Source: an uncultured Gammaproteobacteria bacterium (GTDB taxonomy: Bacteria; Patescibacteriota; Patescibacteriia; UBA9934; GWF2-40-263). Taken from it: a stretch of 55,113 nt of DNA. Positions 978 to 29,404 of the stretch are shown piece after piece. The stretch spans positions 1 to 55,113 of the forward strand of contig CAYNRK010000007.1 of assembly GCA_964399675.1 (NCBI GenBank). Reading direction: 5' to 3'. Under the pieces are notes generated by a model. That model was not told the DNA's origin and did not search any database. It worked only from the letters and a program-made list of their open reading frames with translations. The position numbers and the translations under genes were made by a program. Each line of letters opens with the position of its first letter. Position 1 is the first letter of the stretch.

Positions 978-996
978 CCCTTCGACACAACAACGA

Positions 997-1057: not shown

Positions 1058-1076
1058 ATGGTAAGATAATTTTAAT

Positions 1077-1814: not shown

Positions 1815-1822
1815 ATAATTTT

Positions 1823-2632
1823 ATGATCGAGCCTTTTGATCGAACAAACAAAAATCACATAGCAGCCATGCGCAAACTGCCTTTTGCGTTTATGTCCAGT
1901 GAGTTTGCGCTTTCACATTCTGCACATGTTATTGAGCGCAATGGTGAGTACATCCCAGTATCACAAGATCTTATTTCCCCACATGAATTTCCTGCCCTTT
2001 ACCTACCGCACAAAAAGAAGAACTGGGAATATCTTGCTGTTACCTTTGCGACTGAAAAAGATGTGGAAACTTTGAAAAAAAGTGGTAATCGTATTGTTGT
2101 AGAAAATCCGATCTCTACTGAGTTCTTTTACTCAACTGATCAATTTGTTAATCCAACTGGTTCCTTTCGTAAAAAAATCAATAGTTTTAAAAATAAACAC
2201 AACTTTGAAGTAACAAATGAATGTGATGAAGCTGAGGTTCGAAAATTTTACAAATTTTGGAAAACACAAATAAAAGAAAAGACACTGACTTTTGATGAAT
2301 CTGAATCTTTCTTTTTCTTTGGGCTTGAAAATCTAAAAGCTTTTGGCATTAAGCAGGTTTGTGTCAAAATTGATGGAAAGCTTGCAGGTCTTGCCTGGGG
2401 CCTTGATCATTGGAGTGGTAATTGGGTGGGCATGAGTCTGAAAGTTAATCGGAAGTATCGCGACCTGTCACGATTCCTTCATCACGAACGCGCAAAGCTA
2501 TTTGCAGATCGACCAACTTTCACACTGGGCACAGACGCTTTTAAAAAAGGCATACGGCAATATAAACAAGAACTTAAACCTATCGAGGAAAGGAAATACA
2601 CATATATACTCACAGGCGAAAAAGAGAAATAA
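1823..2632 (+). CDS. hypothetical protein, possible GNAT/DUF2156-like acyltransferase fold
   Basis: 269-aa ORF coupled to the upstream gene; C-terminal KIDGKLAG...LK.NRKYR.L...GIRQYKQELKP resembles DUF2156. Confidence 0.5.
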   Translation: MIEPFDRTNKNHIAAMRKLPFAFMSSEFALSHSAHVIERNGEYIPVSQDLISPHEFPALYLPHKKKNWEYLAVTFATEKDVETLKKSGNRIVVENPISTEFFYSTDQFVNPTGSFRKKINSFKNKHNFEVTNECDEAEVRKFYKFWKTQIKEKTLTFDESESFFFFGLENLKAFGIKQVCVKIDGKLAGLAWGLDHWSGNWVGMSLKVNRKYRDLSRFLHHERAKLFADRPTFTLGTDAFKKGIRQYKQELKPIEERKYTYILTGEKEK

Positions 2633-2677
2633 TATAAAAGACCCTCAGCAAAAAGTGAGGGCTTTGTTGCTGGTTTA

Positions 2678-2920
2678 TTACATAAGTCGTTTTCTCGAAA
2701 ACGCGTGGCCAGACGGTGTCTTTAAATATTTTTCAAAATTCATTGCCTTTTCTCTGTTTCTAAACACACCAACCCAAACCAGCTTCCAAGGACGCAACTT
2801 CTTTGTATAAGAAGATTTGCCATCATTGTGTTCTTTTAGCCGTGTCTCTGCTGTTTGTGTTGTGTATCCGTAATAGTACGTTTGACTTAATTTGCTTTGT
2901 AGAATGTAGACGTAGAACAT
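2678..2920 (-). CDS. small GIY-YIG nuclease
   Basis: YVYILQS...YYGYT...RLKEHN.G...YTKKLRPWKLV...EKYLK. Confidence 0.9.
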   Translation of the reverse strand: MFYVYILQSKLSQTYYYGYTTQTAETRLKEHNDGKSSYTKKLRPWKLVWVGVFRNREKAMNFEKYLKTPSGHAFSRKRLM

Positions 2921-2940
2921 AGACTCTTGCAGTATAACAG

Positions 2941-2966
2941 AAAGACACCCTACGGAGGTGTCTTTT
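2941..2966. terminator. intrinsic terminator hairpin downstream of tRNA-Asp
   Basis: aaagacacc-ctacgga-ggtgtcttt. Confidence 0.55.
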
Positions 2967-2969
2967 GCG

Positions 2970-3102
2970 GCCCCACTTCGCTCAGAGAGCTACGTTAGGG
3001 GCATCCCTACTTCACCCTTTGTGCTGTTGTTGAAGAGTTCCCTTGCGTAATCCAGCAAGTGGAACCCATCCCCAACGTAGCCCAAAGGGCGAAGTGGGAT
3101 GG
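2970..3102. repeat. inverted pair of REP-like palindromes (2970-3002 and 3066-3102)
   Basis: cccacttcgc-N-gctacgtt(a)gggg and its reverse complement, with different loops. Confidence 0.6.
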
Positions 3103-3176
3103 CGGACCGGACGGGACTCGAACCCGCAACTTTCGCCGTGACAGGGCGATGCTCTAGCCAATTGAACTACCGGTCC
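3100..3176 (-). tRNA. tRNA-Asp (GTC)
   Basis: GGACCGG acceptor stem, TAGTTCAATTGG D arm, anticodon loop CTGTCAC, GGTTCGAGTCC T arm, encoded CCA. Confidence 0.97.
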
Positions 3177-3244
3177 AAAATAACGACAAAATATTATCAC
3201 AGCCTCTTAACAAGTGCAAGACTCTGGGCTAAACTACCGATCAT

Positions 3245-3943
3245 ATGAAACACAATAAATTTCCTCGCATTTTAACCTTTATTTTCTTGATTCTTTTAGT
3301 TCTTCTTATTGTCTTTTTCGCTACCCACTCAAATATTGATCCAAAAATAATCGATGATTCCTATCATAAAGATTTTTATACTCAAGCAGAAAATACTTGG
3401 GCAGCCAAACTTGAAGCTCAAAAATTTAGAGAACAAGCACTTGGCGAACTAACTTTTGGATCTTCATCATATGTATCACTTAATTGGCAAAAACCTCGTT
3501 ATAAATATAACCACTTTTTAATCACAGTTTCTAATCCTGAAACCGGATGGACCAGAACTGAAAGCGGTAATCACGACAGAGACATGCTTGATCTTTCTGA
3601 TCTTAAACCAGCTACAGAATACACATTTGTTGTTCAGGTGTGTTTTGATCCTGAATGTAAAAAGTGGGATGTTACTGAAACTGAAGCAAAAGAAACAACA
3701 AGCCCACTTGTTTGGGAAATTGATACTAACGTTAACAACTTAATTGACGAACCTTTCACACGATACACAGAACAAGAAAATTGGGAGGAGCGTTATGATT
3801 TCACAACCGCTCGTTTTTTCAAAAACGAAAAAGAAGTTGCTTTTGATGACATTGAGATTCAAACAGCTTTTGAATTTGAAATATACAGCAGCAAACAACT
3901 CTTGAAACTAAAAAACGGATTCGCAAGATTCATGAATCCGTAA
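3245..3943 (+). CDS. membrane-anchored protein with a fibronectin type III-like domain
   Basis: N-terminal TM; LNWQKP...LSDLKPATEYTFVVQ FN3 signature. Confidence 0.7.
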   Translation: MKHNKFPRILTFIFLILLVLLIVFFATHSNIDPKIIDDSYHKDFYTQAENTWAAKLEAQKFREQALGELTFGSSSYVSLNWQKPRYKYNHFLITVSNPETGWTRTESGNHDRDMLDLSDLKPATEYTFVVQVCFDPECKKWDVTETEAKETTSPLVWEIDTNVNNLIDEPFTRYTEQENWEERYDFTTARFFKNEKEVAFDDIEIQTAFEFEIYSSKQLLKLKNGFARFMNP

Positions 3944-5344: not shown

Positions 5345-6565
5345 TTATTGTTCTGTATACTCCGCAAGTGTGACATCTGTTTCAAACAACACACCCTCGC
5401 GTAATACTTTTATTGTAACAACATCGTTGGGTCGATAAGAAGATATAATTTCTGCAAGCGCCTTATCCTGACTAAGCTGAACACTGTCTATGGCAATTAT
5501 GATATCGCGCTCTTTAAGCCCAGCAAGGTCAGCTGGACTTCCTTTAAACACTGCGATTTGATCCGCTTCATTACCAGCAACGATCATTGCACCAACGTCA
5601 TAATCATAACTGATGTCTGCTTGCTCATTTGGCATTACAAGTACATATCTTACACCAAGCCATGGTCGAATGATTCTTCCGTACTTGCGCACATCATCAA
5701 TAGAGCGCTTTGCATGATTAACAGGAATTGCAAATGCCACTGACTCGCCTTCATAACTTACAGCAGTGTTAATACCTATCACTTCTCCAAGCAGGTTAAT
5801 AAGAGGCCCGCCTGAATTTCCCGGATTGATTGCTGCGTCTGTTTGAATGGCTTTTTCAATCACTTCTGTGCTCACAGTATCCCCCGCAGTTACACGGCGA
5901 TCAATCCCAGAGACCACACCTTTAGTAACTGTGTTTCGAAATTCAGATAAGGTATTCCCAATTGCAATCACTGTCTGTCCAATACGAATGGCATCAGAGT
6001 CTCCAAAACGCACACAAGGAAACGCCTGGCCTTCTACCTTTAAAATAGCCAGGTCCTGAAACGGATCCATATCAACAAGTTCAGCAGCAATTTCATTTCC
6101 TTCATTTGTAACAATGAAATACTCAACATCTGTCTGATTTACAACATGTCTGTTTGTTAATAGATATCCATCCTCTGAGACAAAAAAGCCTGTGCCACTG
6201 CCAACCTCAACCAATTCCTCTTTTTGTTCAGATGTTAAATCTTGTTCAAAAAAGAGTGGGCTTGTAAACGAATTTCCTAAAAATACAGTTTGTGTAATTA
6301 ATCCTCGCGGTTTTTTTACAATCACGCTCACAACAGCTGGAGTAACATTTTCAACAACAGCAATTGTTGCGCTTTCTTCTTCAATAAGTTCAACAATTTT
6401 TGAATCAACTTCTTTTGTGTTCATCGTCTGTGTGGCCAAAGGAGAAATTCCAAATGCATTTGAAAACGTCACATAACTTACAGCCCCAACAATACCACCC
6501 ACAATAGCGGCGATGGCAATCGCAAACATGATAAGAGATTGTTGGTTTTGTGGTTGCAGATTCAT
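5345..6565 (-). CDS. htrA: HtrA/DegP-family serine protease with PDZ domain
   Basis: N-terminal TM, GSGTGF, TNRHV, IQTDAAINPGNSGGPL, C-terminal PDZ. Confidence 0.93.
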   Translation of the reverse strand: MNLQPQNQQSLIMFAIAIAAIVGGIVGAVSYVTFSNAFGISPLATQTMNTKEVDSKIVELIEEESATIAVVENVTPAVVSVIVKKPRGLITQTVFLGNSFTSPLFFEQDLTSEQKEELVEVGSGTGFFVSEDGYLLTNRHVVNQTDVEYFIVTNEGNEIAAELVDMDPFQDLAILKVEGQAFPCVRFGDSDAIRIGQTVIAIGNTLSEFRNTVTKGVVSGIDRRVTAGDTVSTEVIEKAIQTDAAINPGNSGGPLINLLGEVIGINTAVSYEGESVAFAIPVNHAKRSIDDVRKYGRIIRPWLGVRYVLVMPNEQADISYDYDVGAMIVAGNEADQIAVFKGSPADLAGLKERDIIIAIDSVQLSQDKALAEIISSYRPNDVVTIKVLREGVLFETDVTLAEYTEQ

Positions 6566-7062
6566 GATTTTTTATTTTTCGTTTTCTTTTTCGTTTTCTT
6601 TTTTGTGCGACTTCGCGAAAGAAGTTTTCTAAGTTCTGTTTCAAATGATTTCACATCTTCAAAAGATCGGTAAACGGATGCAAATCGAATATAGGCAACC
6701 TTGTCAAAAGATTTTAAATGTTTCATGACAATATCACCGAGCTCACCTGATGTAAGCTGGCCACGTTTTTTCTTTTGAATGTCCCTTTCTATTTTGTGAA
6801 CTAGCCTATGAAATTTTGAATCCGTATAAGGACGTTTTTCCAAAGCCTTTTCAAGTCCACGAATAAGTTTGTCTCGTGAATAATTCTCACGACGCCCATC
6901 GCGCTTAACAACGTTTAAATCTAAAAGTTCCACCTCTTCATTTGTTGAAAATCTAAATCCACACTTTTCACACTCCCGCCTTCGCCTCACACTTGCCCCA
7001 TCGCTTGAGACTCTTGAGTCAATAACTTTTGTGTCTTTATGATTACAAACCGCACACCACAT
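6562..7062 (-). CDS. nrdR: transcriptional repressor NrdR
   Basis: CxxC...KVIDSR...RRRRECxxC zinc ribbon, ATP cone, VAYIRFASVYRSF. Confidence 0.96.
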   Translation of the reverse strand: MWCAVCNHKDTKVIDSRVSSDGASVRRRRECEKCGFRFSTNEEVELLDLNVVKRDGRRENYSRDKLIRGLEKALEKRPYTDSKFHRLVHKIERDIQKKKRGQLTSGELGDIVMKHLKSFDKVAYIRFASVYRSFEDVKSFETELRKLLSRSRTKKKTKKKTKNKKS

Positions 7063-7120
7063 ATATCGTTTTATCAAAATAATAGTTGCATTATAGCAGA
7101 AAAACAGTGCTACACCAGAA

Positions 7121-7867
7121 TCACTCGTGTTTCTTTACAGCCTCCCGATAGGCGCAATAGTCACAGTCCTTTGATGTTTTTGGGATCTTTTTTGATTCAA
7201 GTGTTTTCTTAATCTTAAGCAATGTTGGCTCAACCCAATCGTCCTTTCCTGTGTAAGGAATAAGATGCACATCAAACTCAAGTTTTCCATCAAACGCCTT
7301 TTCATCCAGCCGGCCTGTGCAGTACACAAAATAACCGGTATCAGAAACTTTGAGTTTGTTTTGACGCAACAGCCACTGATAGATTTCCATTTGTCTTTTA
7401 TAACCATCCTGCCAATCCTGATTAAGTTCTGTCACAGGTTCGCTTTTTGCAGTAGCTTTATAATCCACAACAATATACTCACCCTTTTTGTTTTGCCAAA
7501 GATCATCAATCGCACCTGAGATGAGCATTTTGGTTGGTTTGTGAAGATGTTGAATACCCACAAAATTCTCACGCCACTCATCAATCTTCTCATGCTTTGC
7601 CGGAACAGCATTAATTTTATACTGCTTCTGAATCGGATGCTTAGTCCCCTTTGCACGATGCACATCAAACTCTTGTTTCAAAAGCGCATCCACAGCAGAG
7701 TTAAGATTAAACGGAAACCCCGGCGGCCGCTTTGTTCCAAGTTTATTGTCCAAATAAAAACATCTCGGACAGGAAAGAAAAAGATCAATCTTCGATCGAC
7801 TCAGTTTCCACTTGTCACCGCCGTAGTTCCAGGAGGCAGCGCGGTTGGGGTTGTAGTATTGGGGCAT
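7121..7867 (-). CDS. PD-(D/E)XK nuclease (Cas4/AddB-like, four Cys)
   Basis: LSRSKIDLFLSCPRC, GAIDD...VVDYK, QMEIY, C-terminal CDYC. Confidence 0.85.
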   Translation of the reverse strand: MPQYYNPNRAASWNYGGDKWKLSRSKIDLFLSCPRCFYLDNKLGTKRPPGFPFNLNSAVDALLKQEFDVHRAKGTKHPIQKQYKINAVPAKHEKIDEWRENFVGIQHLHKPTKMLISGAIDDLWQNKKGEYIVVDYKATAKSEPVTELNQDWQDGYKRQMEIYQWLLRQNKLKVSDTGYFVYCTGRLDEKAFDGKLEFDVHLIPYTGKDDWVEPTLLKIKKTLESKKIPKTSKDCDYCAYREAVKKHE

Positions 7868-7872
7868 AGGTT

Positions 7873-9058: not shown

Positions 9059-9202
9059 TCATCTTTTGCCTTTACCCGCATTGTCCAAATAAAAACATTT
9101 CGGACAAGAAAGAAAAAGATCAATCTCCAACCGACTTAGTTTCCGGTTGTTGCCACCGTAGTTCCAGGAGGCCGCGCGGTTGGGGTTATAGTATTGGGGC
9201 AT
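9059..9202 (-). pseudogene. truncated 5' copy 1 of the PD-(D/E)XK nuclease gene
   Basis: 9080-9202 aligns ungapped to 7745-7867, 13 mismatches in 123 bp; reads MPQYYNPNRAASWNYGGNNRKLSRLEIDLFLSCPKCFYLDN. Confidence 0.92.
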
Positions 9203-9244
9203 AATTAAATTTGTTTCATTTTTAGGTGTGCACTAGACCTAACT

Positions 9245-10165: not shown

Positions 10166-10291
10166 TTATTTGCCTTGTAGATATCTATAATCCCCTCCAA
10201 GAAGAAAACCAATCTTCGACCGACTTAGTTTCCAGTTGTTGCCACCATAGTTCCAGGAGGTAGCGCGGTTGGGGTTGTGGTATTGGGGCAT
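10166..10291 (-). pseudogene. truncated 5' copy 2 of the PD-(D/E)XK nuclease gene
   Basis: 10199-10291 ungapped, 12 mismatches in 93 bp; MPQYHNPNRATSWNYGGNNWKLSRSKI. Confidence 0.9.
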
Positions 10292-10341
10292 ATTATTCTT
10301 GTTCAATATACTTAACATTGACTTTTGAAATTTGCACAGTT

Positions 10342-11034: not shown

Positions 11035-11061
11035 ATAGTATATTAACTACTCATAAGTAGG

Positions 11062-11166
11062 TTAATCTATATAAACCAAAAAATCAATCTTCAACTGACT
11101 TGGTTGCCAGTTGTTGGCATAGTGGTTCCAGGAGGTAGTGTGGTTGGGGTTGTGGTAGGGGGGCAT
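11062..11166 (-). pseudogene. truncated 5' copy 3 (most diverged) of the PD-(D/E)XK nuclease gene
   Basis: 11077-11166 ungapped, 22 mismatches in 90 bp; MPPYHNPNHTTSWNHYANNWQPSQLKID. Confidence 0.85.
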
Positions 11167-11185
11167 GTTATTCGATTCAAAAAAT

Positions 11186-13702: not shown

Positions 13703-16498
13703 TTACCACTCAAACACATCAACGATATTTTCAATCGCGCTTTTGATTCGTTTAACAATCCCTGATCGTTCAAGAATTCTTGGTTGCTCTGGCATTAAAT
13801 CAACAATGTCCTGACTACGAGGCAGGCGTTGGGTGTACAAATAGTCCCCAATCAATTGCTCAATATTATCAAGTGGAATTTTCTCATCTTTTGCAAGAGC
13901 TTTCAAATTATCAGAACGCTTGCTTGCCCAAAATTTACTAAAGGCCTTTTCAACATCATCTGCCTTTTTAATATTTGGTAAATTCTCTTCAATAAACTTT
14001 CTAATCAAATCTTTCTTTTTTCTAAGCTTCACATCACGATCAAAAATTCGCAAAATATCTTCTGTCTTTTTTTCTCGAACTGCGTCAGAACTAATATTTT
14101 TAAGTCCTGCTATTAGCAAGATAATGTAATCAAAATTTATAATATCTCGAACCGTAAGCTCAAGCTCAAAATCAATCTGATCAAGAATAGATTCATCTTC
14201 GCTTTCATTATTCTTGCGATCTTCATGAACATCTAAATATTTACTTTGATAGTCATAAAATTCTTGTTCTGTAATTCCAAGCTCGACAAATGAAAACTCT
14301 GCAAAAGTTTCAAGCGACGACTTAATGCGCAACAAGTCACGAAATGTTCTCACAAACTCAGCCTTTTCTTCTTCACCCTGCAGAGAATCAACGGACTCCA
14401 CAGTCGGAACCTTTTCGCGCAACTCTTTCAATTTACTCTCAAATTCTTTTTTCTGATCTTCATAAGGCTTCTTAAAAACAACCTCTTTTGCATTTTCATC
14501 TCCATACAAAGCAAGGGCCTTATCAGTAGCTAATTTCAAATTTCTAAATGAGACAATGTTTCCATGTGGCTTGTCAGAATTCAACAAACGGTTGGTACGT
14601 GAATAAGCTTGGATAAGCCCGTGATAACGCAAATTCTTGTCCACATACAACGTATTAAGTCTTGGACTATCAAACCCTGTTAAAAACATATTCACCACAA
14701 GCACAAGATCAACTTCCTTATCTTTGATCCGTTTTTGCAAATCCCTGTAGTAATCATAAAATCGATCTGTTGAAAAATTGGTTGCAAACGTTTTGTTGTA
14801 ATCCTTTATGCAATCTTCCAAAAAATCACGCGAGTGTTTATTTCCAGGAGTTCCCTCACCTGCAAACACATCCACATCAAGCATGTCCGAACTGTCGTCT
14901 TCATTTGCGTGATATGTAAAAATAGTTGCGATTTTAAAATCATCAGACTTTTTCTTTTTAAACAAAGTATAATACTTTTTCAAAACCTCAATACTTGTCA
15001 CTGCAAAAAGTGCATTGAACTTTCCTTTCTTTGTTTTCCGCTTCCAATCCGCCAACACATATTCTGTGATTTTATTAAGGCGATCACTGCTCTCGAGTAC
15101 TTCTTTTGTATCAATTCCCTCAACAAGAGTTTCGGCAAAAATATCCGCATCCACTACATCAGAATCCTTTTGCGTGTATTTGCCAACATACTCAACCGCA
15201 AAGCCAAGCACATTATTATCAGAGATTGCATGAGTGATGATATACCTGTGCAAACATTCATTAAACACATCAGCTGTTGTTACTCCTCCAACATTGTTAT
15301 CAGCAAAAATCGGCGTTCCAGTAAAGCCAAAAAGTTGGGCCTGTTTAAAAAATGTTTCTATTCGTTTATGTGTTTGACCAAATTGACTGCGGTGACATTC
15401 GTCAAAAATGATTATCACTTTTTCATTTTCCAAGTAGTTAAATTGTTTTAAATAAGACTCTCGCCCAATTGCAATATCGAGCTTTTGAATTGTGGTGACA
15501 ATGAGTTTTCTTTTCTTATCTTTCAATTGCTTTACAAGATTACGAGTATTATCAGTTCCATCAACCGATCCGTCAGAAAATGAATTGAACTCTTTTGTTG
15601 TTTGAATATCTAGATCTTTTCTATCAACAACAAACAAGACTTTTTTAACCTCGGGGATTTGTGAAAGAATCTGACTTGTCTTAAATGAAGTTAATGTTTT
15701 ACCAGATCCTGTTGTATGCCAAATGTAACCATTCTTACTTGATTCAAGCACGCGCTTCTCAATGGCTTTGACAGCAAAGTATTGATAAGGACGAAGAACC
15801 ATTGGAATTTTCTTTGATTCAGCAAGAACAATATGCTCAGCAATCATTTCTGAAATAGAACATTTTTCCAAGAATGCTTCCGCAAACTCATCAAGCTTTG
15901 TAATCTTTCTATTATCTACATCCGTCCAAAAAAATGTTTGTTCAAATGATTGCTTTGGATTGTTTGAAAAATACTTCGTATTCACCCCATTTGAAATAAC
16001 AAAAATTTGCACGTATTCAAAAAGTGTTCCAGCAAATGAATGTTTATGATATCGCTGAATCTGATTAAACGCTTCCTTCATTTCCACCCCTCGACGCTTT
16101 AATTCAATCTGAACAAGCGGCAGCCCATTGATTAAAAGCGTAACGTCATACCGATTCTCATACCGACCAACCTGTGTAATCTGCTGGGTAACTTGATATC
16201 GATTCTTACACCACTTATCCATGCAGAAAAAAACAATATACTTGGTACTCTCATCATCTCTTTTCAAAAGAAACCGATCCCGCAAGGTTTTCGCCTTTTC
16301 AAACCGATCGCCTTTTTTAAGATGATTCAAAATTTTCTTAAACTCACCATCAGAAAAAGTCGTTTCATTCAAAAGCTCAAGCTGCACTTTTAAATTTCCA
16401 ATCATTTCTTCCTGATCTTTTATTGTCACCCCTAAAAATCCCAACTGATTAAGTTGTTTGATGAGAGTGTTTTCAAGTTGTTGTTCGGATTGGGGCAT
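13703..16498 (-). CDS. hsdR: Type I restriction enzyme R subunit (EcoR124I-like)
   Basis: RYDV.LLINGLPLVQIELK, WHTTGSGKT, DECHRS, FTGTP, MFLTGFD, QAYSRTNR. Confidence 0.96.
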   Translation of the reverse strand: MPQSEQQLENTLIKQLNQLGFLGVTIKDQEEMIGNLKVQLELLNETTFSDGEFKKILNHLKKGDRFEKAKTLRDRFLLKRDDESTKYIVFFCMDKWCKNRYQVTQQITQVGRYENRYDVTLLINGLPLVQIELKRRGVEMKEAFNQIQRYHKHSFAGTLFEYVQIFVISNGVNTKYFSNNPKQSFEQTFFWTDVDNRKITKLDEFAEAFLEKCSISEMIAEHIVLAESKKIPMVLRPYQYFAVKAIEKRVLESSKNGYIWHTTGSGKTLTSFKTSQILSQIPEVKKVLFVVDRKDLDIQTTKEFNSFSDGSVDGTDNTRNLVKQLKDKKRKLIVTTIQKLDIAIGRESYLKQFNYLENEKVIIIFDECHRSQFGQTHKRIETFFKQAQLFGFTGTPIFADNNVGGVTTADVFNECLHRYIITHAISDNNVLGFAVEYVGKYTQKDSDVVDADIFAETLVEGIDTKEVLESSDRLNKITEYVLADWKRKTKKGKFNALFAVTSIEVLKKYYTLFKKKKSDDFKIATIFTYHANEDDSSDMLDVDVFAGEGTPGNKHSRDFLEDCIKDYNKTFATNFSTDRFYDYYRDLQKRIKDKEVDLVLVVNMFLTGFDSPRLNTLYVDKNLRYHGLIQAYSRTNRLLNSDKPHGNIVSFRNLKLATDKALALYGDENAKEVVFKKPYEDQKKEFESKLKELREKVPTVESVDSLQGEEEKAEFVRTFRDLLRIKSSLETFAEFSFVELGITEQEFYDYQSKYLDVHEDRKNNESEDESILDQIDFELELTVRDIINFDYIILLIAGLKNISSDAVREKKTEDILRIFDRDVKLRKKKDLIRKFIEENLPNIKKADDVEKAFSKFWASKRSDNLKALAKDEKIPLDNIEQLIGDYLYTQRLPRSQDIVDLMPEQPRILERSGIVKRIKSAIENIVDVFEW

Positions 16499-16693
16499 AT
16501 AAGCCTGTTTTAATTGTGTATAAATATCTTGACAAAATGACAGTTTTCTGCCAACATATAAGCATCAATACGAGAAGGGATCCGAATGGCTAACTACCTA
16601 AGGAGCCCTTTTCTTTTTGAATTTTAGCCTTTATTGCTTCTTGATCGAGGTGATCAAAATACTCCGATCCAAGTTTTTTATTTTCCATATTTT

Positions 16694-16768
16694 TCATCTC
16701 AAAAACCCCAATCGGTTAAGTTGTTTGATGAGGGTGTTTTCGAGTTGTTGTTCGGATTGGTGAAGCAT
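16694..16768 (-). pseudogene. truncated 5' copy A of hsdR
   Basis: MLHQSEQQLENTLIKQLNRLGFLR* versus HsdR MPQSEQQLENTLIKQLNQLGFL; 7 mismatches in 60 bp. Confidence 0.92.
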
Positions 16769-16770
16769 AA

Positions 16771-17298
16771 TCAATTTAGCAGACCCATACTTTTTGCTTT
16801 ATCGCTGTCGATTTTTAATAAGGCAACTGAACAATAGCACTTACCCTCATCAATTGGATAGACATGAATCATGTCAAATAAAAATGATGGGAAGTCTTTT
16901 AAATTTAATGTTGCTATGCAAAGGTTTTCTGCATGCCGTAAGGCAAACGCGGTTATAACACAATCTACAAGAGAGGCGCCGCTCAGATCCCTTACCGCAT
17001 ATTCGTAAGCCACCTTTTCCGCTAAATCCATAAGTTCCGCATCTGATGGACGACTAGGCAACGTAACCAATCCTAAATTTTCCCAAAACTCATCCCTTAA
17101 CTTCTTATGTTCAGGAGATTTTGCGCCTTTCATAAACTCAAAACGCACAAACGGAAATGACACTGGGGTGCAACCTGCTTCTTTTAAATCAGAAAAAAAA
17201 CGCGCTGCTTCCTTTGCGTTTTTAAATCCTCGAAGCAGAACGCCTGTATCGATCAAAAGTGAATTTTTGTTAAGTTGTTGTTTCCAATTCACTGTCAT
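16771..17298 (-). CDS. PIN-domain (VapC-like) ribonuclease
   Basis: LLIDTGVL, conserved E, SLVDCVI, IATLNLKDF. Confidence 0.8.
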   Translation of the reverse strand: MTVNWKQQLNKNSLLIDTGVLLRGFKNAKEAARFFSDLKEAGCTPVSFPFVRFEFMKGAKSPEHKKLRDEFWENLGLVTLPSRPSDAELMDLAEKVAYEYAVRDLSGASLVDCVITAFALRHAENLCIATLNLKDFPSFLFDMIHVYPIDEGKCYCSVALLKIDSDKAKSMGLLN

Positions 17299-17419
17299 AT
17301 TGAACCTGACCTTTCTTTTCTTCTTCTGTCAACCGCTCAATCTTTACAGCCAATTCCGCCAATTTCTCAAAATTGGGTTTTTCTGTAGAGATATTTTGTT
17401 TATTTTCTTCCTTCTCCAT
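17270..17419 (-). CDS. small acidic protein, putative antitoxin of the PIN protein
   Basis: 49-aa ORF overlapping the PIN start; inferred from position only. Confidence 0.45.
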   Translation of the reverse strand: MEKEENKQNISTEKPNFEKLAELAVKIERLTEEEKKGQVQYDSELETTT

Positions 17420-17435
17420 ACGTCTATATAATAGC

Positions 17436-17507
17436 TTATTCTTTTCGCTCTGCACAACCTCGCTCAAACACACTCTTTTCAAGTTGTTGTTCGGATTGGT
17501 GGAGCAT
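17436..17507 (-). pseudogene. truncated 5' copy B of hsdR
   Basis: MLHQSEQQLE...; caatccgaacaacaacttgaaaa is identical to the hsdR start region. Confidence 0.85.
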
Positions 17508-17509
17508 GG

Positions 17510-18202
17510 TTAAGATGTAGCCAACTCAGCCAATGCTTTCACGTGTTCCCAGGCTATTCCCATAAAAATATTACTCGTAGCTTGCGGCCCATTTGACACA
17601 ACCCCCACAAGTCTATTTTGCTCTTCTTTCAACACAACTGGAGAGCCGCTAAACCCACCAACAACAGCGCCTGATATTTGCACCTGTTTTTTATTGACAT
17701 CTTGTTTCTTGCTGACACCAACAACGCCTTCAGCATAGGTTGGGGAATGCAGCTCATCTAACAACTTGTCTCCCAATGGAAAACCCGCATATGCCACCTG
17801 GGTTCCAACCAAAGGATATTGCTCCGCAAGCTCAAGACCTTTTGAAGCCTCGCGCTTCAACTCGTCACCTGACAAAAAACTATTGTCGTTCGCTAGAACA
17901 CGCAAAACGGCCAAGTCATGACGCATGTCAATTTGATCAACCATTGCTCTACGATAATTCCCAGCCTCACCAACAACAAGCAATCCAGCCACCTCAAGAG
18001 GAGCAACTAATAAACCACGGACAACATGCTCACAAGTAATCATAACCTCATATTCTTTTAGCCAGAAAGCTGTTCCTATAACATTTAGTTCATCCGAGAA
18101 AATCTTTCCGTCTCGCGGGTTAAATTTAGGCTTAAATATCCCTACAGCCCGCACACTTCCATATACATAAGGATTAACATCACTTGAAGTTGTTTCTGTC
18201 AT
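17510..18202 (-). CDS. trypsin-like serine protease, no signal peptide
   Basis: GTAF, TCEHV (His), DLAVL (Asp), GFSGSPV (Ser). Confidence 0.85.
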   Translation of the reverse strand: MTETTSSDVNPYVYGSVRAVGIFKPKFNPRDGKIFSDELNVIGTAFWLKEYEVMITCEHVVRGLLVAPLEVAGLLVVGEAGNYRRAMVDQIDMRHDLAVLRVLANDNSFLSGDELKREASKGLELAEQYPLVGTQVAYAGFPLGDKLLDELHSPTYAEGVVGVSKKQDVNKKQVQISGAVVGGFSGSPVVLKEEQNRLVGVVSNGPQATSNIFMGIAWEHVKALAELATS

Positions 18203-18219
18203 ATAATACTTAAACTTAA

Positions 18220-18891
18220 TCAAAGATCATTATTTCTTTTTTCAATCCTATCTTTTTCAATTTCCGGCAAAGTCTCGAAAAGGCCCTCCACTTCTTTTTG
18301 TTCCGTGATCATCTTCTCGGCAATAAAATTAATGACATCAAATAACTTTTCAGCAATCTGTTTATCATCCTCAAAATCAATATATCCGGGATGGACTGCA
18401 TGATTTCCAGTCACCCTTACAAAATCAAGTCCTTTTTGAATTGTAGGATTTAAACCCTTGCCTATAAGACTCTTGATATCATTATTAATGTTATCACCTT
18501 TTTCCCCGAGCTGTTTCAATAATTTTTGAAGAGCGAGACGCAATAGAGCAGCCGCTCCTCTTGGTGACTTGTTTAAAATTTTAGCCGCTTCATTGTAATC
18601 GTTTTTTACATCCTCAGACAGATCTTCATTTGGTTCACTGACAGAAATCTCGTCAGGAAAAATTACCTGATCTGAAAACCAAATCATAAATTTTCCACAA
18701 TGACTACATTTGGACATTCGCCATTCTGCATCCAAATTTTCCTGAAACTTAGATAAACGATCGATTGATTCGTCACCCCAAATATGTTTAGCACCAATAT
18801 GGGCCCAAGATTGCATCGCAAAAACCAAACAATGAGGACAATGAAATTGCCCCTCTAAAAGTGTTGGTGGATAATGTTTTTCTTTTTTCAT
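18220..18891 (-). CDS. DUF4145 (HEPN-like) protein with N-terminal zinc ribbon
   Basis: CPHC...CSHC, DYNEA...SPRGAAALLR, R..GNHAVH. Confidence 0.85.
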   Translation of the reverse strand: MKKEKHYPPTLLEGQFHCPHCLVFAMQSWAHIGAKHIWGDESIDRLSKFQENLDAEWRMSKCSHCGKFMIWFSDQVIFPDEISVSEPNEDLSEDVKNDYNEAAKILNKSPRGAAALLRLALQKLLKQLGEKGDNINNDIKSLIGKGLNPTIQKGLDFVRVTGNHAVHPGYIDFEDDKQIAEKLFDVINFIAEKMITEQKEVEGLFETLPEIEKDRIEKRNNDL

Positions 18892-18898
18892 AGTGTTT

Positions 18899-20170
18899 TT
18901 ACACAAACAAACCTTGCATTAACCCCTTCTTCCACTCCTCCGCCTTCACAATCTGCTTTTGCTTTGATTCTATCAACTTATCAAGACTCGTCAAAAATTC
19001 TGCAATTTTTTGTTGTTCCGAGAGTGATGGAATTTTAAATTTCAAATTAGAAAAATCTTTCTTATTTAACATTTGCATGCCACCGGCACCAGCAAACCGA
19101 ATAAGTACATTTTTATTTTTTTCTAATAAGAAATAAAGAAAATTAACTATGTTGGCTTTATTGGGTGTAATAGAATTAATTTGCTGATTGCAACTTCCAT
19201 CAACTTTCAAAACAACATTTTTTCCAATACTAGCAATACAAGTAACTAATAAGCTATCTTTTGGAATAAATCGGCCCTTATCAATTCCTTTCTTTGTTAA
19301 AGACTTGGCTGATACGTAAATATCTTTTTCAGCGCCAATGTCAGTCGGAGTTATCCATGGAAAATCATCGCCATAGTATTTTTTGTTTTTAGTAGACGGT
19401 GTACTACCTGTAATAATCTCACCAACCTCCCCCAACCTCTTCTCCTCCCACTCCCCAAACTCCTCCCCACCCTCATCCTTAAACCCCACCTCTTGCGAAA
19501 AGATTTTTTGCATCATTCCTTTTTTATAAGATTCCAAAGATTCTTTTTGAGACCGCAAATTTTTAATCCATTCATCAACTGATGTCAAAAACTCCGCAAT
19601 CTTTTTTTGTTCCGTTTTTTTGGGTAGATAAAAACTCAACTTTTGAATGTACGATTTAGAAACCCCTAACACCTTTGTTCCCTGAGCTATACGTTTTACA
19701 CCCAACCTGAAAGTCGGACTCTTCAGAAGATGCCCCACAAAGCCCAAAGCCACATTATTGCACTTTCGTTTTAACAATAGAGTGTGCAGACCAGATAAAA
19801 CTTTCTGATTGCCGACATGACAAACTTCAATACCTTTTCCAATATCGGCATAATCCTCTGATGCATCAGCAAGAACCAAGTCGCCGCATTCTACAAAATT
19901 ATTATTAGAATGTTTTGGCTCTTCTCCCGAATTAATAAAAGGAACTCTTTCTCTATTGAGATCAAAATGACTTCTAAACTTTTTGTGAATATCACCATAA
20001 TGGATATTTTTGATTTCGCCAGACTCGTAATTCAACTTATCCCGAGATAAAGAATTCGTTACTCGAAACGAATACACCTCCCCCAACCTTTTTTCCTCCC
20101 ACTCACCAGAAAAACCCGGGAATCTTAATTCCGGAATCATTTTTTTTTGTTTTTCGACCTTTTGTGTCAT
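18899..20170 (-). CDS. hsdS: Type I RM specificity subunit
   Basis: PELRFPGF..EWEEKRLG, two TRDs, duplicated P...EQ.KIAEFLTS.D. Confidence 0.95.
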   Translation of the reverse strand: MTQKVEKQKKMIPELRFPGFSGEWEEKRLGEVYSFRVTNSLSRDKLNYESGEIKNIHYGDIHKKFRSHFDLNRERVPFINSGEEPKHSNNNFVECGDLVLADASEDYADIGKGIEVCHVGNQKVLSGLHTLLLKRKCNNVALGFVGHLLKSPTFRLGVKRIAQGTKVLGVSKSYIQKLSFYLPKKTEQKKIAEFLTSVDEWIKNLRSQKESLESYKKGMMQKIFSQEVGFKDEGGEEFGEWEEKRLGEVGEIITGSTPSTKNKKYYGDDFPWITPTDIGAEKDIYVSAKSLTKKGIDKGRFIPKDSLLVTCIASIGKNVVLKVDGSCNQQINSITPNKANIVNFLYFLLEKNKNVLIRFAGAGGMQMLNKKDFSNLKFKIPSLSEQQKIAEFLTSLDKLIESKQKQIVKAEEWKKGLMQGLFV

Positions 20171-20254: not shown

Positions 20255-21094
20255 TTATTCCAGTTCCTTTTTTTCTTCTCCTCCCCCTAAATAATTTTCA
20301 TCACTTACAACACTTTCATCTGTAGCTTCTTCAAGTTGCTGTCTGGCACTCTTTGCAATGCTGCCACCTTTTTTAGCAGATTGCGCATTTTCATTATAAC
20401 CATGAGACTCATCTTTCTTAGCAATCTTTGTAGTTGACAATTCCGCTAGTGCTGTAAAAATCAATTCAGCTTCTGTCATGGCATCGCGCAAATTTTCTTT
20501 ATCAAGATCTTTCAAATCCTTATGCTGGCCAGTAGTCAAACCGCTCCATTCTTTATGAATGATATTTGTTAACTTTGCATATTCCAAACCTTTTTGAACT
20601 CCACTCTCCTGCCAATAATCAGTCAGCTTATTTCTAATTTCCTGCCCACGCATTCTTTGCTCAATCCATTTTTCAGGCGCACCCATTTTCTTCCAATTCT
20701 CCCTAGCTCTATTTACTGCTATTTCAGGATTAACTATTTCTTGCAATCTCTCATACCCAACCTTAGCCAACCAAAGTTTAAATGGTTCAGCTTTCTTTGA
20801 TGGAACCGACTGAATAATTCTAAAAATTCCCTCAACATGAGAACAATTCACTTTTTGAGGACCGCCTTTTGTTTCAATCGTAAGGGGGGTGGCAATTTGC
20901 CCCCACCCTTCTGAAAGTCCTTCATCACGACGTCTCATGTCCTTAATATAACCGGAAGGATCTTTGCTTTCTGTTAAAACCTCAACAATATCAACAATGG
21001 CAAAATACCATTTTTCTTCTTTTTCTATCCACTTCCTACGCACAGGAAAATCTTCGAATAGGACAATTGTTTTATTTGAATTTTGATCTGACAT
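20255..21094 (-). CDS. Bro-N/antirepressor-like DNA-binding protein
   Basis: WYFAIVDIVEVLT, GIFRIIQSVPSKKAEPFKLWLA, ENLRDAMT. Confidence 0.8.
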   Translation of the reverse strand: MSDQNSNKTIVLFEDFPVRRKWIEKEEKWYFAIVDIVEVLTESKDPSGYIKDMRRRDEGLSEGWGQIATPLTIETKGGPQKVNCSHVEGIFRIIQSVPSKKAEPFKLWLAKVGYERLQEIVNPEIAVNRARENWKKMGAPEKWIEQRMRGQEIRNKLTDYWQESGVQKGLEYAKLTNIIHKEWSGLTTGQHKDLKDLDKENLRDAMTEAELIFTALAELSTTKIAKKDESHGYNENAQSAKKGGSIAKSARQQLEEATDESVVSDENYLGGGEEKKELE

Positions 21095-21105
21095 ATTTTA
21101 TATAT

Positions 21106-22683
21106 TTAAAAAGGCTTTTCGATTTTAAGCTCATCACAAAACTCGGAAATCCTTTTTTGCAAATCCTCTTCTTCTGCACTGAACTTCTTAATCTTGTTTG
21201 CAACCTCTTCAATGTTAATCGCCTCCTCTTCCTCAAAAGTGTCAACATATCGAGGAATGTTTAGGTTGTATTCGTTTTCTTTAATCTCATCCAAACTTGC
21301 GCGATGTGAATACTTCTCAATCTCTTTGCGCCCTTTATACGTTTCAAAAATCTTTTCAATATTCTCATCAGATAACTTGTTTTGATTCTTTCCCTTTTCA
21401 AATTCTTTTGACGCATCAATAAATAAAATGTCATCGTCGTCTTTACGGCACTTTTTAAAAACTAAAACTGTTACGGGAATAGAGGTGCCGTAAAAAATAT
21501 TTGGAGGTAATCCAATCACTGCATCAAGATAATTTTGTTTTTCTATAATATATTTTCTAATCTGTCCCTCTGCTCCTGATCTAAACAGAGCACCGTGAGG
21601 TAAAACTATTGCCATTGTTCCGTTGTCTGCAAGGTGATAAAGCATGTGCGTTACAAACGCATAATCTGCCTTGTTCTTTGGTGCAAGTCTTCCGTATTGA
21701 GAAAACCTATCATCGTGTGCGAGCTGTGGATCTGCATCACCTTTCCATTTTGCTGAAAACGGAGGATTGGCAACGATCGCATCAGCCTTCAGATCTGCAT
21801 GCATGTCATCTTGTAAAGTATCGCCCTGGCGAATATCAAAATGATCAAAATGCACCCCATGCAAAATCATGTTCATTCGCGCAAGGTTGTAAGTGGTTCT
21901 ATTAAGTTCTTGCCCAAAATATTCTACTACTTCTGCAAAATCTCTAATACGCAACAAAAGTGAACCAGAGCCACATGTTGGGTCGTAAACTGATCGCACA
22001 CGTTTTTTATCTTGTGACACTATCTGAGCTAACAGCTGTGACACTTGTGGAGGAGTATAAAACTCTCCGCCCTTTTTACCGGCACCGGCTGCAAACTCTC
22101 CAATCAAATATTCATAAGCATCTCCAAGAAGATCGCTCTTTGTATCTTCAAGCTTAAAATCTATTTCGCTTAAAAGAGAAAGAACCTCAACAACAACTTC
22201 ATTCTTTTGATTCTCACGAGAACCGAGTTTTGTAGATGTTAAATCAACATCGTCAAAAAGACCTTTAAAATCATCCTCACTTGCCGTGCCCATTGAAGTA
22301 CTTTCAATAGTGTTAAGAACATTTTTGAGATCCTCGAGAATAAAAGTGTTTTGACCTTTAATATTACCCTTACCTTTTTTAATAAGATAAGAAAAAAGTT
22401 CAGTTGGTTTTAAGAAAAAACCAAGATGACCAATGCAACCTTTTCTAACTTCTTCCAAAATCTTTTTGCCTTCTTCGGTCTTTTCCTTTATTTCTGCAAA
22501 TTTAAAATCTTCACGAGCAAGAAGCTTTTCGTCAACGTAGCGCTCTAACCTTTCAGAAAGATACTTATAAAAAATAAAACCGAGAATATAATTCTTGTAT
22601 TCATCGGCATTTATTTTACCGCGAAGCGCGTTTGCAACACCCCACAATTGTTTCTCTAATAATCGTTTTTGTTCTTCTGACAT
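21106..22683 (-). CDS. hsdM: Type I RM methyltransferase subunit
   Basis: LGDAYEYLI, GEFYTP, YDPTCGSGSLL, ANPPFS, NLNIPRYV. Confidence 0.96.
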   Translation of the reverse strand: MSEEQKRLLEKQLWGVANALRGKINADEYKNYILGFIFYKYLSERLERYVDEKLLAREDFKFAEIKEKTEEGKKILEEVRKGCIGHLGFFLKPTELFSYLIKKGKGNIKGQNTFILEDLKNVLNTIESTSMGTASEDDFKGLFDDVDLTSTKLGSRENQKNEVVVEVLSLLSEIDFKLEDTKSDLLGDAYEYLIGEFAAGAGKKGGEFYTPPQVSQLLAQIVSQDKKRVRSVYDPTCGSGSLLLRIRDFAEVVEYFGQELNRTTYNLARMNMILHGVHFDHFDIRQGDTLQDDMHADLKADAIVANPPFSAKWKGDADPQLAHDDRFSQYGRLAPKNKADYAFVTHMLYHLADNGTMAIVLPHGALFRSGAEGQIRKYIIEKQNYLDAVIGLPPNIFYGTSIPVTVLVFKKCRKDDDDILFIDASKEFEKGKNQNKLSDENIEKIFETYKGRKEIEKYSHRASLDEIKENEYNLNIPRYVDTFEEEEAINIEEVANKIKKFSAEEEDLQKRISEFCDELKIEKPF

Positions 22684-22724
22684 ATGACGACATTTTACCT
22701 TTATTGAGATAAAAATCAAGAAAT

Positions 22725-22757: not shown

Positions 22758-23969
22758 TTACATCATCTTCTTCCTAATAAAAGCCGGGATCTCTATTTCG
22801 TCTTCTTCCTGTTTCTGAGCTGTTGGTGCTTTCATGATTGGTTTTGGTTTTTGAATTGGTGCTGGAGCTTGATCTTCTTTTTTTGGTGCAAAGTTTGATG
22901 CAGGTGCTTTTGATCTAACTGGCTGCTCTTCATCTCTAACTCTTAAAAGCGATGATGGCGCCCATGTTCCTTGAGCTTGAACTTCAACTGCACCAGGCGA
23001 AGCTTTTCGACGTTCTCGTGAATCAAACCCTGTTGCAACAACTGTAATGCGCACCTCTTCGCTCATGTCGTCATCAATATTAGCACCGAAAATAACTTTT
23101 GCATCTTCATCTGCTGAACTTGTGATAATCTTTGCGGCTTCTGCCACTTCGTGCATTCCTAAATTCATATCTCCTGTGATTGTAAAAAGAACACCTTTTG
23201 CCCCATCAATTGATAACTCAAGTAAAGGACTTGCTATTGCTTGTTTGGCTGCTTCAACAGCTCGATTTTCTCCCTCAGCTTTTCCAATTCCCATTAAAGC
23301 TGAACCGGATGATTCCATAATTGCTTTAATGTCAGCATAGTCAACGTTGATAAGGCCCGGGACTGTAATAAGCTCAGCAATCCCTTGCACACCTTGCCGC
23401 AACACATCATCCACTACTGTAAAGGCTTCCATTAAAGAAGTTTTCTTATCAATGATTTGTAAAACTCGATCGTTTGGAATTGTGATTATTGCATCAACGT
23501 GTTGAAGCAATCGATCAAATCCTTCATCTGCAATGCGCCTACGCTGAGCCCCTTCAAACGTAAACGGTTTTGTAACAACAGCGATTGTGAGTGCGCCAAT
23601 GTCTTTTGCAAGTTTGGCCACCTCTGGAACAGCGCCTGTTCCGGTTCCTCCTCCAAGTCCGCAAGTTAAAAATACCATGTCTGCTCCATTGAGAACCTCG
23701 CGAATTTCATTTTGATTCTCCTCAGCAGCTCTGCACCCAACTTCTGGATCCATACCTGCACCCAGACCACGTGTAATGGTTTTCCCTATTGGAATTTTTT
23801 TCTGGGCCAAATTTTGATTAAGAGCTTGTACGTCTGTGTTGACGACAATAAACTCAACACCCTTAATATTATCGCTGATCATTCTATTGATTGCAGCGCC
23901 TCCACCACCTCCTATGCCAACCACTTTGATCTTGGCAAACGTTTCGATCTCTGGTTTTACTTGAGCCAT
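22758..23969 (-). CDS. ftsZ: cell division protein FtsZ
   Basis: GLGAG, GLGGGTGTG, GLINVDYAD, C-terminal IEIPAFIR. Confidence 0.98.
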   Translation of the reverse strand: MAQVKPEIETFAKIKVVGIGGGGGAAINRMISDNIKGVEFIVVNTDVQALNQNLAQKKIPIGKTITRGLGAGMDPEVGCRAAEENQNEIREVLNGADMVFLTCGLGGGTGTGAVPEVAKLAKDIGALTIAVVTKPFTFEGAQRRRIADEGFDRLLQHVDAIITIPNDRVLQIIDKKTSLMEAFTVVDDVLRQGVQGIAELITVPGLINVDYADIKAIMESSGSALMGIGKAEGENRAVEAAKQAIASPLLELSIDGAKGVLFTITGDMNLGMHEVAEAAKIITSSADEDAKVIFGANIDDDMSEEVRITVVATGFDSRERRKASPGAVEVQAQGTWAPSSLLRVRDEEQPVRSKAPASNFAPKKEDQAPAPIQKPKPIMKAPTAQKQEEDEIEIPAFIRKKMM

Positions 23970-24120
23970 ATTTTTTTCCTTGAACACTTTAATTGTTCAA
24001 TTTGTACTTTCTTGAACACTAAATTCATTCACACTTTAGCACTCTCGAAATTAGTGTCAAGAAAACAAAAAGAAGATATACACATCTTCCTTTCTTATCA
24101 TCTTGACCGAGTATTATTAT

Positions 24121-27483: not shown

Positions 27484-27662
27484 TGTGACTGTCTCCCAAA
27501 ATCCTCCGACGAACACTCAGTCTACCATCAACAGGTACGTTGTATATAATTTCGCCAGCACGGAACGATAGTGAGTACTGCCGAAATTATATACAACGTG
27601 ACTGTCCCCCAAAGTTCTCTACGGAGATTGCTTCGGCCCGTCTGACGGGCCTCGCAATGACA
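27484..27662. repeat. intergenic composite: direct repeats, an 18-bp perfect inverted repeat and a REP half-element
   Basis: gtgactgtcYcccaaa twice; acgttgtatataatttcg IR at 27537-27554/27582-27599; gagattgcttcg...cctcgcaatgac. Confidence 0.65.
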
Positions 27663-27716
27663 CAGGGGGAAAAGTAATGACACAAGGTGAAAAGACAAAA
27701 CAAAGACGCAGTGTGA

Positions 27717-29322: not shown

Positions 29323-29404
29323 GTCATTGCGAGACCCGTCAGACGGGCCGAAGCAATCTCCGTTAATACGAGGATTGCTTCGTCGCTTTGCTCCTCGCAA
29401 TGAC
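29323..29404. repeat. REP-like doublet GTCATTGCGAG...CTCGCAATGAC
   Basis: inverted arms gtcattgcgag..gaagcaatc / gattgcttcg..ctcgcaatgac. Confidence 0.8.

Follow-up and report, generated by a model that had tools for sequence, protein, structure and literature searches.

Remnants of hsdR gene starts that look like scars of repeated defence-gene insertion in a type I restriction-modification operon

The DNA analysed here, hereafter the window, is one whole 55-kb contig (CAYNRK010000007.1 of assembly GCA_964399675.1, 55,113 nucleotides (nt)) of a 1.09-Mb genome in 16 contigs (GC 0.42, standard code), labelled as an uncultured Gammaproteobacteria bacterium and placed by GTDB in the Patescibacteriota. 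It carries a type I restriction-modification (R-M) operon in which two truncated copies of the 5' end of hsdR, here called O2 and O3, lie upstream of the intact gene, each starting at the ATG and each directly behind a cargo gene. The two fragments look like scars of repeated defence-gene insertions into one operon. We put at about even the chance that they were left by serial homology-anchored insertion or replacement with long target duplication at the hsdS|hsdR junction.

Two truncated hsdR starts ahead of the intact gene

Fragment O2 starts with an ATG at position 16768, 2 nt past the stop codon of a PIN-domain gene (16771-16773), and its homology to hsdR 5' ends runs for about 71 nt; its translation reads MLHQSEQQLENTLIKQLNRLGFLR and then stops. 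Fragment O3 has its ATG at 17507, 2 nt past the stop codon of a protease gene (17510-17512), and is homologous over 32-34 nt, reading MLHQSEQQLEK with unrelated sequence thereafter. A sequence-only reading of this DNA had already described two truncated hsdR starts, each 2 nt behind the stop of the PIN or the protease gene, and had noted that both begin MLHQSEQQLE where intact HsdR begins MPQSEQQLE; coordinates, alignments (about 71 nt at 16698-16768, 32-34 nt at 17474-17507) and translations (MLHQSEQQLE in O2 and O3, MPQSEQQLEN in intact HsdR) agree with it on all of these points. In a self-BLAST of the 1.09-Mb genome the 60-nt pair had E = 9e-15 and the 32-nt pair E = 5e-5. When at most 2 mismatches are allowed, a 23-nt core, CAATCCGAACAACAACTTGAAAA, has three matches in the window versus none in 100 shuffles, so the copies are not due to chance. 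No similarity was found among the sequences upstream of the three ATGs, that of the intact gene (copy O1) included. As direct repeats of the hsdR 5' end (32-71 nt), O3 and O2 flank an antitoxin-PIN pair and O2 and O1 flank a spacer (spacer B), the two inserts being 0.7 and 0.2 kb in size, respectively.

Copies O1 and O2 differ at 7 of 60 nt, and 6 of these differences fall at third codon positions (binomial P = 0.007); five of the differing codons are synonymous and one is not, in line with the earlier statement that most differences in the longer copy are synonymous. At the single replacement O2 has the family consensus LNRLGF, while the resident hsdR has LNQLGF. Between O2 and O3 there are 3 differences in 33 nt, all at third positions. 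Because of this third-position bias, together with the consensus LNRLGF in O2, the two fragments are diverged functional alleles, each of which evolved for a while as the start of a working hsdR, and not in-situ duplicates; O2, the longer one, diverged under purifying selection. The MLHQ N-terminus itself was found in remnants only (window 16766-16768 and 17505-17507, and positions 873-902 of a metagenome contig, L027). A single transition (CCC to CTC) separates it from the MPHQ type, and it may mark either an unsampled allele family or a change that arose within remnants.

Slippage or tandem duplication of the resident hsdR start, or a mis-assembly, could also yield close short direct repeats, but such a local origin is highly improbable. 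The third-position bias and the MLHQ/MPQ difference show separate allelic histories, against local duplication. As for an artefact, in the Logan assemblies of two possible source samples (X1 and X4) one 7217-nt contig each spans 15000-19500 with 0 differences. In two other samples, an identical low-depth piece bridges the hsdR start, the spacer, O2 and the PIN gene (X8, record 22, 16023-17023), and another identical low-depth piece covers most of O3 (X7, record 16, 17302-17497). Since the same structure is found in independent assemblies of these four runs from two studies, and the same design recurs in a single-cell genome, the remnants are not assembly artefacts. No Logan contig in the four runs joins across a cargo unit (cassette), which tells nothing on excision because contigs drop rare variants.

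The operon belongs to a defence island that lies entirely on the minus strand, bounded by nrdR (6562-7077) and ftsZ (22758-23987). In the direction of transcription the island runs hsdM, Bro-N, hsdS, DUF4145, trypsin-like protease, O3, a 49-amino-acid open reading frame (ORF), PIN, O2, a 200-nt spacer with a 35-codon ORF, and intact hsdR. After hsdR come a 114-amino-acid ORF, an Eco47II/Dcm type II R-M pair and a second array, called the PDDEXK array, in which HTH, Doc, Fic and MerR/DUF4325 genes are set apart by three remnants of the next gene's start, and then that gene itself, a Cas4-like PD-(D/E)XK gene. The features of the type I operon are as follows.

21106..22719, minus strand: hsdM, type I methylase subunit, the first operon gene after ftsZ (Pfam N6_Mtase 1e-114, HsdM_N)
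20255..21094, minus strand: Bro-N domain cargo gene between hsdM and hsdS (Pfam Bro-N; PADLOC PDC-S13 5e-111)
18899..20170, minus strand: hsdS, specificity subunit (Pfam Methylase_S, 2 stretches)
18220..18906, minus strand: DUF4145 cargo gene, matching the single-gene defence system PD-T7-4 (Pfam DUF4145; PADLOC PD-T7-4 6e-83)
17510..18223, minus strand: trypsin-like serine protease cargo gene, stop 2 nt ahead of O3 (Pfam Trypsin_2 1.6e-14)
17474..17507, minus strand: remnant O3, first 32-34 nt of an hsdR allele (MLHQSEQQLEK), in a 23-codon mini-ORF ending at 17436 (self-BLAST, alignment)
17270..17419, minus strand: small ORF of 49 amino acids, antitoxin-like PIN partner, overlapping the PIN start (from sequence; without family match)
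16771..17298, minus strand: PIN-domain (VapC-like) toxin cargo gene, stop 2 nt ahead of O2 (Pfam PIN 4e-4 and NCBIfam VapC 3e-4, both under the curated cut-offs)
16698..16768, minus strand: remnant O2, first ~71 nt of an hsdR allele (MLHQSEQQLENTLIKQLNRLGFL), in a 24-codon mini-ORF that ends in a TGA overlapping the next small ORF's ATG
16499..16697, minus strand: spacer B between O2 and intact hsdR, carrying a 35-codon ORF at 16590-16697 (from sequence)
13703..16498, minus strand: intact hsdR, 931 amino acids, MPQSEQQLEN..., its first ~71 nt being copy O1 (Pfam HSDR_N, SWI2_SNF2, T1R_D3-like, EcoR124_C)

All HsdR domains are present in the intact protein according to Pfam, and it is 75% and 74% identical to its homologues in genomes G043 and G045, respectively. 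The pair of antitoxin-like ORF and PIN gene is conserved in G052:C12 at 36% and 41% identity, and several cargo genes of the window match PADLOC models, named or candidate (PD-T7-4, PDC-S13, PDC-S04, PDC-S23). With hsdM, hsdS and hsdR on one strand and non-hsd genes in between, the locus is a type I R-M operon in which defence genes are embedded. The cargo genes are not distinct from neighbouring genes in GC or GC3, promoter-like and terminator-like sites in the array are not above shuffled sequence, and the remnants and spacer have no Rfam match at E<=1 except a 13-bit chance match. No relative of spacer B and its 35-codon ORF was found in the genome or in the comparison loci. However, 62 nt of this spacer (window 16556-16617) are common, with 6 differences, to a second contig in runs X1 (3161 nt) and X4 (1980 nt), so that a sequence related to the spacer occurs in another context in the same samples. 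Elsewhere in the window, positions 29414-39970 hold a 3518-amino-acid ORF with internal Cys-rich repeats, followed by a 625-amino-acid Big_5/T4SS-pilin-like protein; upstream, periodic repeats of 9 nt occur in proteins that have bacterial TSP3 repeats.

The hsdR start in other genomes

The sequence-only reading had staked itself in part on the existence of other such remnants, and they do exist. Outside the window, eight further remnants of 31-62 nt were found in seven contigs, mostly labelled Patescibacteria (L027, a single-cell genome contig with two, L046, L049, L052, L121 and L078), beside cargo of the RloB, HNH, RhuM, Fic and Schlafen types. The remnant in L027, a metagenome contig of GC 0.31, reads MLHQSEQQLEKTLR before a stop and is located between an AAA_21/RloB gene, which it follows, and a Fic gene; over its first 34 nt it matches O3 exactly, and both flanks are unrelated. 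In the Patescibacteria single-cell contig one of the two remnants follows an HNH gene and stands ahead of a 224-amino-acid gene and an intact hsdR, and L046 has, in this order, a 40-nt remnant, a 127-amino-acid gene and an intact hsdR. The cargo near the remnants of L049, L052, L121 and L078 includes Schlafen/AlbA_2, DUF5671 and Fic genes. The start codon is ATA, not ATG, in the remnants of L049 (~899) and L121 (minus strand, oriented ~2449), and it is also degraded in L052, where in addition an in-frame CAA is changed to TAA; these degraded starts are consistent with remnant decay.

By local alignment the ten remnants, O2 and O3 included, measure 31, 32, 40, 42, 46, 51, 51, 53, 62 and 71 nt. 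The search pattern required the core (nt 10-31) in each remnant, but not shortness, and no remnant longer than 71 nt was seen among its matches, three ORFs of 146-340 codons being frameshifted full-length genes. No breakpoint motif is common to any two remnant classes. Two apparent coincidences of breakpoints were rejected after alignment: that of O3 with L027, where homology extends to ~nt 53, and that of four remnants seeming to end at one position (after ...TL), for which local alignment gives 40, 46, 51 and 53 nt. Motifs ending in GGAATGACAAG follow remnants in the single-cell contig and in L078.

The junctions of the remnants with their upstream neighbours can be compared with those of intact genes. 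A pattern scan for QSEQQLE in one genome per species found at least 119 loci, and among the matches listed there are 18 loci with an intact hsdR of this N-terminus and 3 with frameshifted full-length genes. In 16 loci with intact hsdR among these matches, the upstream ORF ends between -4 and +33 nt from the ATG, and in 11 of the 16 between -4 and +4 nt, as the sequence-only reading had supposed when it likened the remnants to real operon junctions; the 2-nt gaps ahead of O2 and O3 thus correspond to those of native junctions. It had also proposed to list the gene directly upstream of each hsdR homologue: in the same loci this gene encodes HsdS in 4 cases and diverse defence or other cargo in 12 (Shedu SduA, HerA, a reverse transcriptase, a UvrD-like helicase, AAA_21, TPR, and 6 without a Pfam match). 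G043 and G045, from other families of the order, each have one hsdR start, no remnant and different cargo, with differing unknown genes 3 and 5 nt ahead of hsdR. As varied ORFs so closely abut hsdR in the 16 loci, the hsdR start is a general hot spot with cargo packed tightly ahead of it. Moreover, a 21-nt core within nt 10-31, CAATC[CA]GAACAACAACTTGAA, hardly varies in nucleotide sequence among 31 copies, intact or truncated, whose genomes have a GC of 0.28-0.48, in part because AT-rich genomes use CAA and GAA codons. To judge from these sequences, the core is the one near-identical stretch common to otherwise diverged type I operons.

A sister array at the PD-(D/E)XK gene

In the same island, the first 93-128 nt of the Cas4-like PD-(D/E)XK gene (7121-7867) are repeated three times upstream, each time from the ATG. 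The copies of its start are as follows.

7745-7868, 9080-9203, 10169-10292 and 11044-11167, minus strand: PDDEXK start copies, with Fic, Doc/HTH and MerR/DUF4325 cargo between them

The region of this array includes the Eco47II restriction and Dcm methylase genes. Divergence of the copies from the intact gene climbs with distance (13/123, 12/93 and 23/93 differences), and the farthest copy, in which the third-position bias is gone, shows neutral decay; this fits new units entering beside the intact gene. A homologue of the gene (55-70% identity) is located directly downstream of hsdR in four other genomes, namely G045 (L022, G045:C38 1600-2343), L087 (2652-3389), G018 and G005 (L017 and L019 are among these loci). 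Both arrays thus probably sit at junctions of one ancestral operon, hsdM-hsdS-hsdR-PDDEXK, and the two anchors are probably not independent sites. In G045, MerR and DUF4325 homologues stand after the PDDEXK gene, not before it, and no PDDEXK remnant was found after that MerR-DUF4325 pair. A same-family relative (G035:C4:22120-22218; L177 5124-5219, minus strand) carries no more of PDDEXK than an N-terminal fragment that covers residues 3-34 at 64-66% identity; the fragment is without an ATG, is read through from a 163-amino-acid ORF and ends in a stop, with a Fic gene 1.5 kb upstream and msrB after it.

The sequence-only reading had taken the second array as a sign that the same process acts on a different gene and is not specific to one site. 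The likeness of design stands, with copies starting at the ATG, variable lengths and cargo in between, but the evidence comes from two junctions of one island and there is no third array. The genome-wide search for start-anchored repeats that this reading had called for combined a self-BLAST of the 16 contigs with a check of each candidate start codon in ORFs of at least 120 amino acids. Once the candidates were inspected, only the hsdR and PDDEXK arrays were left, so the design is not genome-wide. Among the rejected candidates, the families at C2 67193-71020 and on C3 and C4 are structured intergenic repeats, those on C5 are promoter or leader repeats, and those on C1 and C6 are intragenic repeats or paralogue N-termini. 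The C2 region (G000 contig C2, 67193-71020) holds five copies of a GC-rich intergenic repeat of 130-220 nt with a hairpin (GGGCGTGG...CCACGCCC), which separate genes with signal-peptide-like starts, a kind of array different from the gene-start remnants. Short intergenic repeat families with the motif ...GCTTCGTCGCTTTGCTCCTCGCAATGAC... and partial dyad symmetry occur in the window (29365-29404, 49130-49169 and 27650-27691) and also at C3 60373-72402 and C4 35224-53034.

Origin of the remnants and relation to known systems

If the fragments arose by serial homology-anchored insertion, DNA of another type I operon would arrive with one or more cargo genes directly abutting hsdR, and it would pair with the resident hsdR via the conserved core of the 5' end, the homology stopping at the ATG because the upstream genes differ. 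The non-homologous cargo end would then be joined illegitimately a few dozen nt inside the resident hsdR, and the resident start (ATG to nt 32 or 71) would be left behind its old upstream neighbour, with the incoming cargo and a complete hsdR after it, the outcome being a long target duplication. For the window, the order would be a protease-hsdR(a) arrangement, then antitoxin/PIN-hsdR(b) joined at nt ~34, and then spacer/orf35-hsdR(c) joined at nt ~71. The DNA may have entered by natural transformation via ComEC, DprA and RecA, and the joint may have been made, for example, by ligation of a heterologous flap to the resident strand end after short branch migration; such a flap-joining step would account for the short length of the duplication and for its start at the very point where homology begins. 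Direction and order of the events, the entry route and the joining chemistry are what we infer, and illegitimate recombination during transformation, which the sequence-only reading had suggested, is a reasonable mechanism. The genome encodes ComEC, RecA and DprA, with dprA, already noted in the window by that reading, at 49711-50790, and both the homologous anchor (the hsdR 5' core of the 31 sequences) and predicted DNA-uptake and RecA genes are present. Natural competence is reported for Saccharibacteria (PMC10633639 and its preprint).

Several observations weigh against this reading. The donor that it calls for, an intact MLHQ-type hsdR beside the PIN or the protease gene, was found in none of the pattern, protein and N-terminal searches. 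The MLHQSEQQLE pattern had 0 matches in 400 other genomes of the phylum and 0 in 185,579 species genomes, and its 1 match in JGI metagenome contigs is itself a remnant (L027). The N-termini of the 45 HsdR proteins nearest over the first 60 residues are MPQS (16), MTHQ (9), MTTQ (5), MPQT (4), MPHQ (3), MSHQ (3) and others (5), with MLHQ in none of them, nor in any of the 18 intact and 3 frameshifted hsdR genes among the matches listed. Of 120 other genomes of the order, 5 have PIN homologues (7 loci, none adjoining hsdR) with identities no higher than 41%, and the protease has no homologue at E<=1e-10 in the 120 genomes. The illegitimate nature of the joint is likewise something that we infer. 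Furthermore, the second remnant of the single-cell contig follows a RhuM gene downstream of the intact hsdR, so not every remnant is backed by an intact copy. All ten remnants are at most 71 nt long and contain the conserved core, a clustering that fits a site-directed process too. The inserted units are also compact, with cargo beginning 0-40 nt past the remnant mini-ORF in the 6 cases inspected, and they resemble cassettes more than random fragments. Because of the clustered breakpoints and the compact units, explanations by cassettes and by site-directed integration are kept.

According to one of these, which we hold unlikely, the units are integrase-free cassettes: host RecA would loop out the cargo between direct hsdR-start copies as a circle with one copy, and the circle would reinsert Campbell-style at any hsdR start with a conserved core, the remnants being attachment sites in a homology-based analogue of integrons. 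Direct repeats do flank each unit, the core is nearly invariant in the 31 sequences over the whole GC range, the units are compact and promoterless-looking, recA is present, and the 34 nt identical to O3 lie in an unrelated contig of GC 0.31 with different flanks on both sides. But copies of 32-71 nt that are ~90% identical are poor RecA substrates, circle integration favours long homology, unlike the short pieces here, no cassette was seen in two places, and the first duplication would still require an illegitimate event. A wider form of the idea, put forward only tentatively and with a similarly small chance of being right, is that the first ~30 nt of hsdR, and likewise the PDDEXK start, form a universal recombinase-free landing pad, where flanked defence cassettes are excised and reinserted by host recombination and competence machinery and could move between unrelated small-genome bacteria; the stretch of L027 identical to O3, in a low-GC organism and among different neighbours, hints at such movement. 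If this is true, type I R-M operons of Patescibacteria would be homology-based 'integrons' that build defence islands without mobile-element genes.

Site-specific integration is unlikely too. The elements would be small and mobilisable, with a replacement hsdR 5' end for attP, and a recombinase supplied in trans would insert them at the conserved core; islands that target dusA or tRNA genes leave a partial target copy at the far end in this way. All ten remnants do hold the same core and end within 71 nt, the duplication begins at the ATG as if an element restored the gene start, and a target conserved across taxa is a typical choice of integrases. However, no integrase or transposase was found in 42 window ORFs scanned with Pfam (21 of at least 40 amino acids across 3949-23987, and 21 across 180-3943 and 24267-54537), and the single match to PF00589 (tyrosine recombinase) in the genome is located on another contig, C8. 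The copies have no dyad symmetry, hairpin or attC-like fold (DNA fold z-scores -1.35 to +0.56), and their lengths differ nearly every time, 31-71 nt across the ten remnants, with no fixed crossover giving a constant repeat length. The second anchor gene, PDDEXK, has the same design with unrelated sequence. In viral contigs, 9 pattern matches looked at briefly included no clear hsdR start beside an integrase, and none of them is by translation a clear hsdR start; in L159 and L161 an M precedes QSEQQLE, and in L159 the match lies within a 120-amino-acid ORF. The remnants could also be relics of deletion, from tandem complete type I operons or hsdR genes in which later deletions spared the first nucleotides of each upstream hsdR, and this would account for remnants that are diverged functional alleles and for the single-cell remnant located downstream of an intact hsdR, where a second hsdR might have been lost. 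Against it, 10 of 10 remnants are at most 71 nt and none is intermediate, the ORFs of 146-340 codons being frameshifted full-length genes, and each deletion would have to begin within ~70 nt of the start codon and end just ahead of the next cargo. We consider this history improbable.

Homology-anchored insertion has relatives among known processes. Homology-facilitated illegitimate recombination occurs in natural transformation of Acinetobacter, Pseudomonas stutzeri and pneumococcus, and the process proposed here would likewise combine one homologous anchor with one illegitimate joint, in a genome that has comEC, dprA and recA. In its classical outcome recipient DNA is replaced and the anchor is not duplicated, whereas here the anchor is duplicated. 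In integron cassette arrays and in tandem islands at tRNA genes or dusA, compact cargo lies between target copies, with a partial copy at the far end of the unit. The arrays described here also have compact cargo units parted by copies of one target, but the window has no integrase, and the repeats vary in length and form no structured attC-like site. Insertion of an R-M unit with long target duplication was reportedly described by Nobusato et al. in 2000. Cases of R-M units inserted with long target duplication were treated by Furuta, Abe and Kobayashi in 2010 (PMC2853133), and in the parts of that paper used here they come mostly from species with natural competence, a translation start or stop often falls within the repeats so that the target gene is kept intact, and insertion into operon-like structures is noted. 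As in those cases, direct repeats of >30 bp and of variable length flank the insert, no integrase or transposase genes are involved, and the insert is <20 kb (here 0.2 and 0.7 kb). Unlike in the cases given in those parts, the inserts at hsdR are toxin-antitoxin or defence cargo and a 35-codon ORF, not R and M homologues. Also unlike them, successive events struck a single target and built up an array, every duplication opens with the start codon of the gene that follows, and several lineages have been hit at this same target, the hsdR 5' end.

Type I R-M operons that enclose defence genes have been reported with TgvAB in VPI-2 of Vibrio cholerae (PMC11411939) and by Payne et al. (2024, bioRxiv 10.1101/2024.01.29.577857). 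The present operon is like those in having non-hsd defence genes amid hsdM, hsdS and hsdR on the same strand. The portions of the two sources at hand tell which genes are embedded, not how, and the main text of Payne et al. nowhere uses 'recombination', 'remnant' or 'hsdR'; the remnants described here would be the footprint of embedding. New here are start-codon-anchored remnants in arrays recording serial embedding, the conserved hsdR start as target, and the recurrence across Patescibacteria.

The remnants are a readable record of single embedding events and suggest an order for them. They also suggest that the hsdR allele arriving with each event had evolved elsewhere as a functional gene, and that no integrase was encoded nearby. 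They are present in at least 8 contigs, mostly of small-genome Patescibacteria, organisms with few classical mobile elements and with natural competence in the one group tested. Saccharibacteria are genetically tractable, so the mechanism, if true, is open to direct test there. Homology-anchored insertion during transformation, if it is true, would explain how defence islands grow in such organisms.

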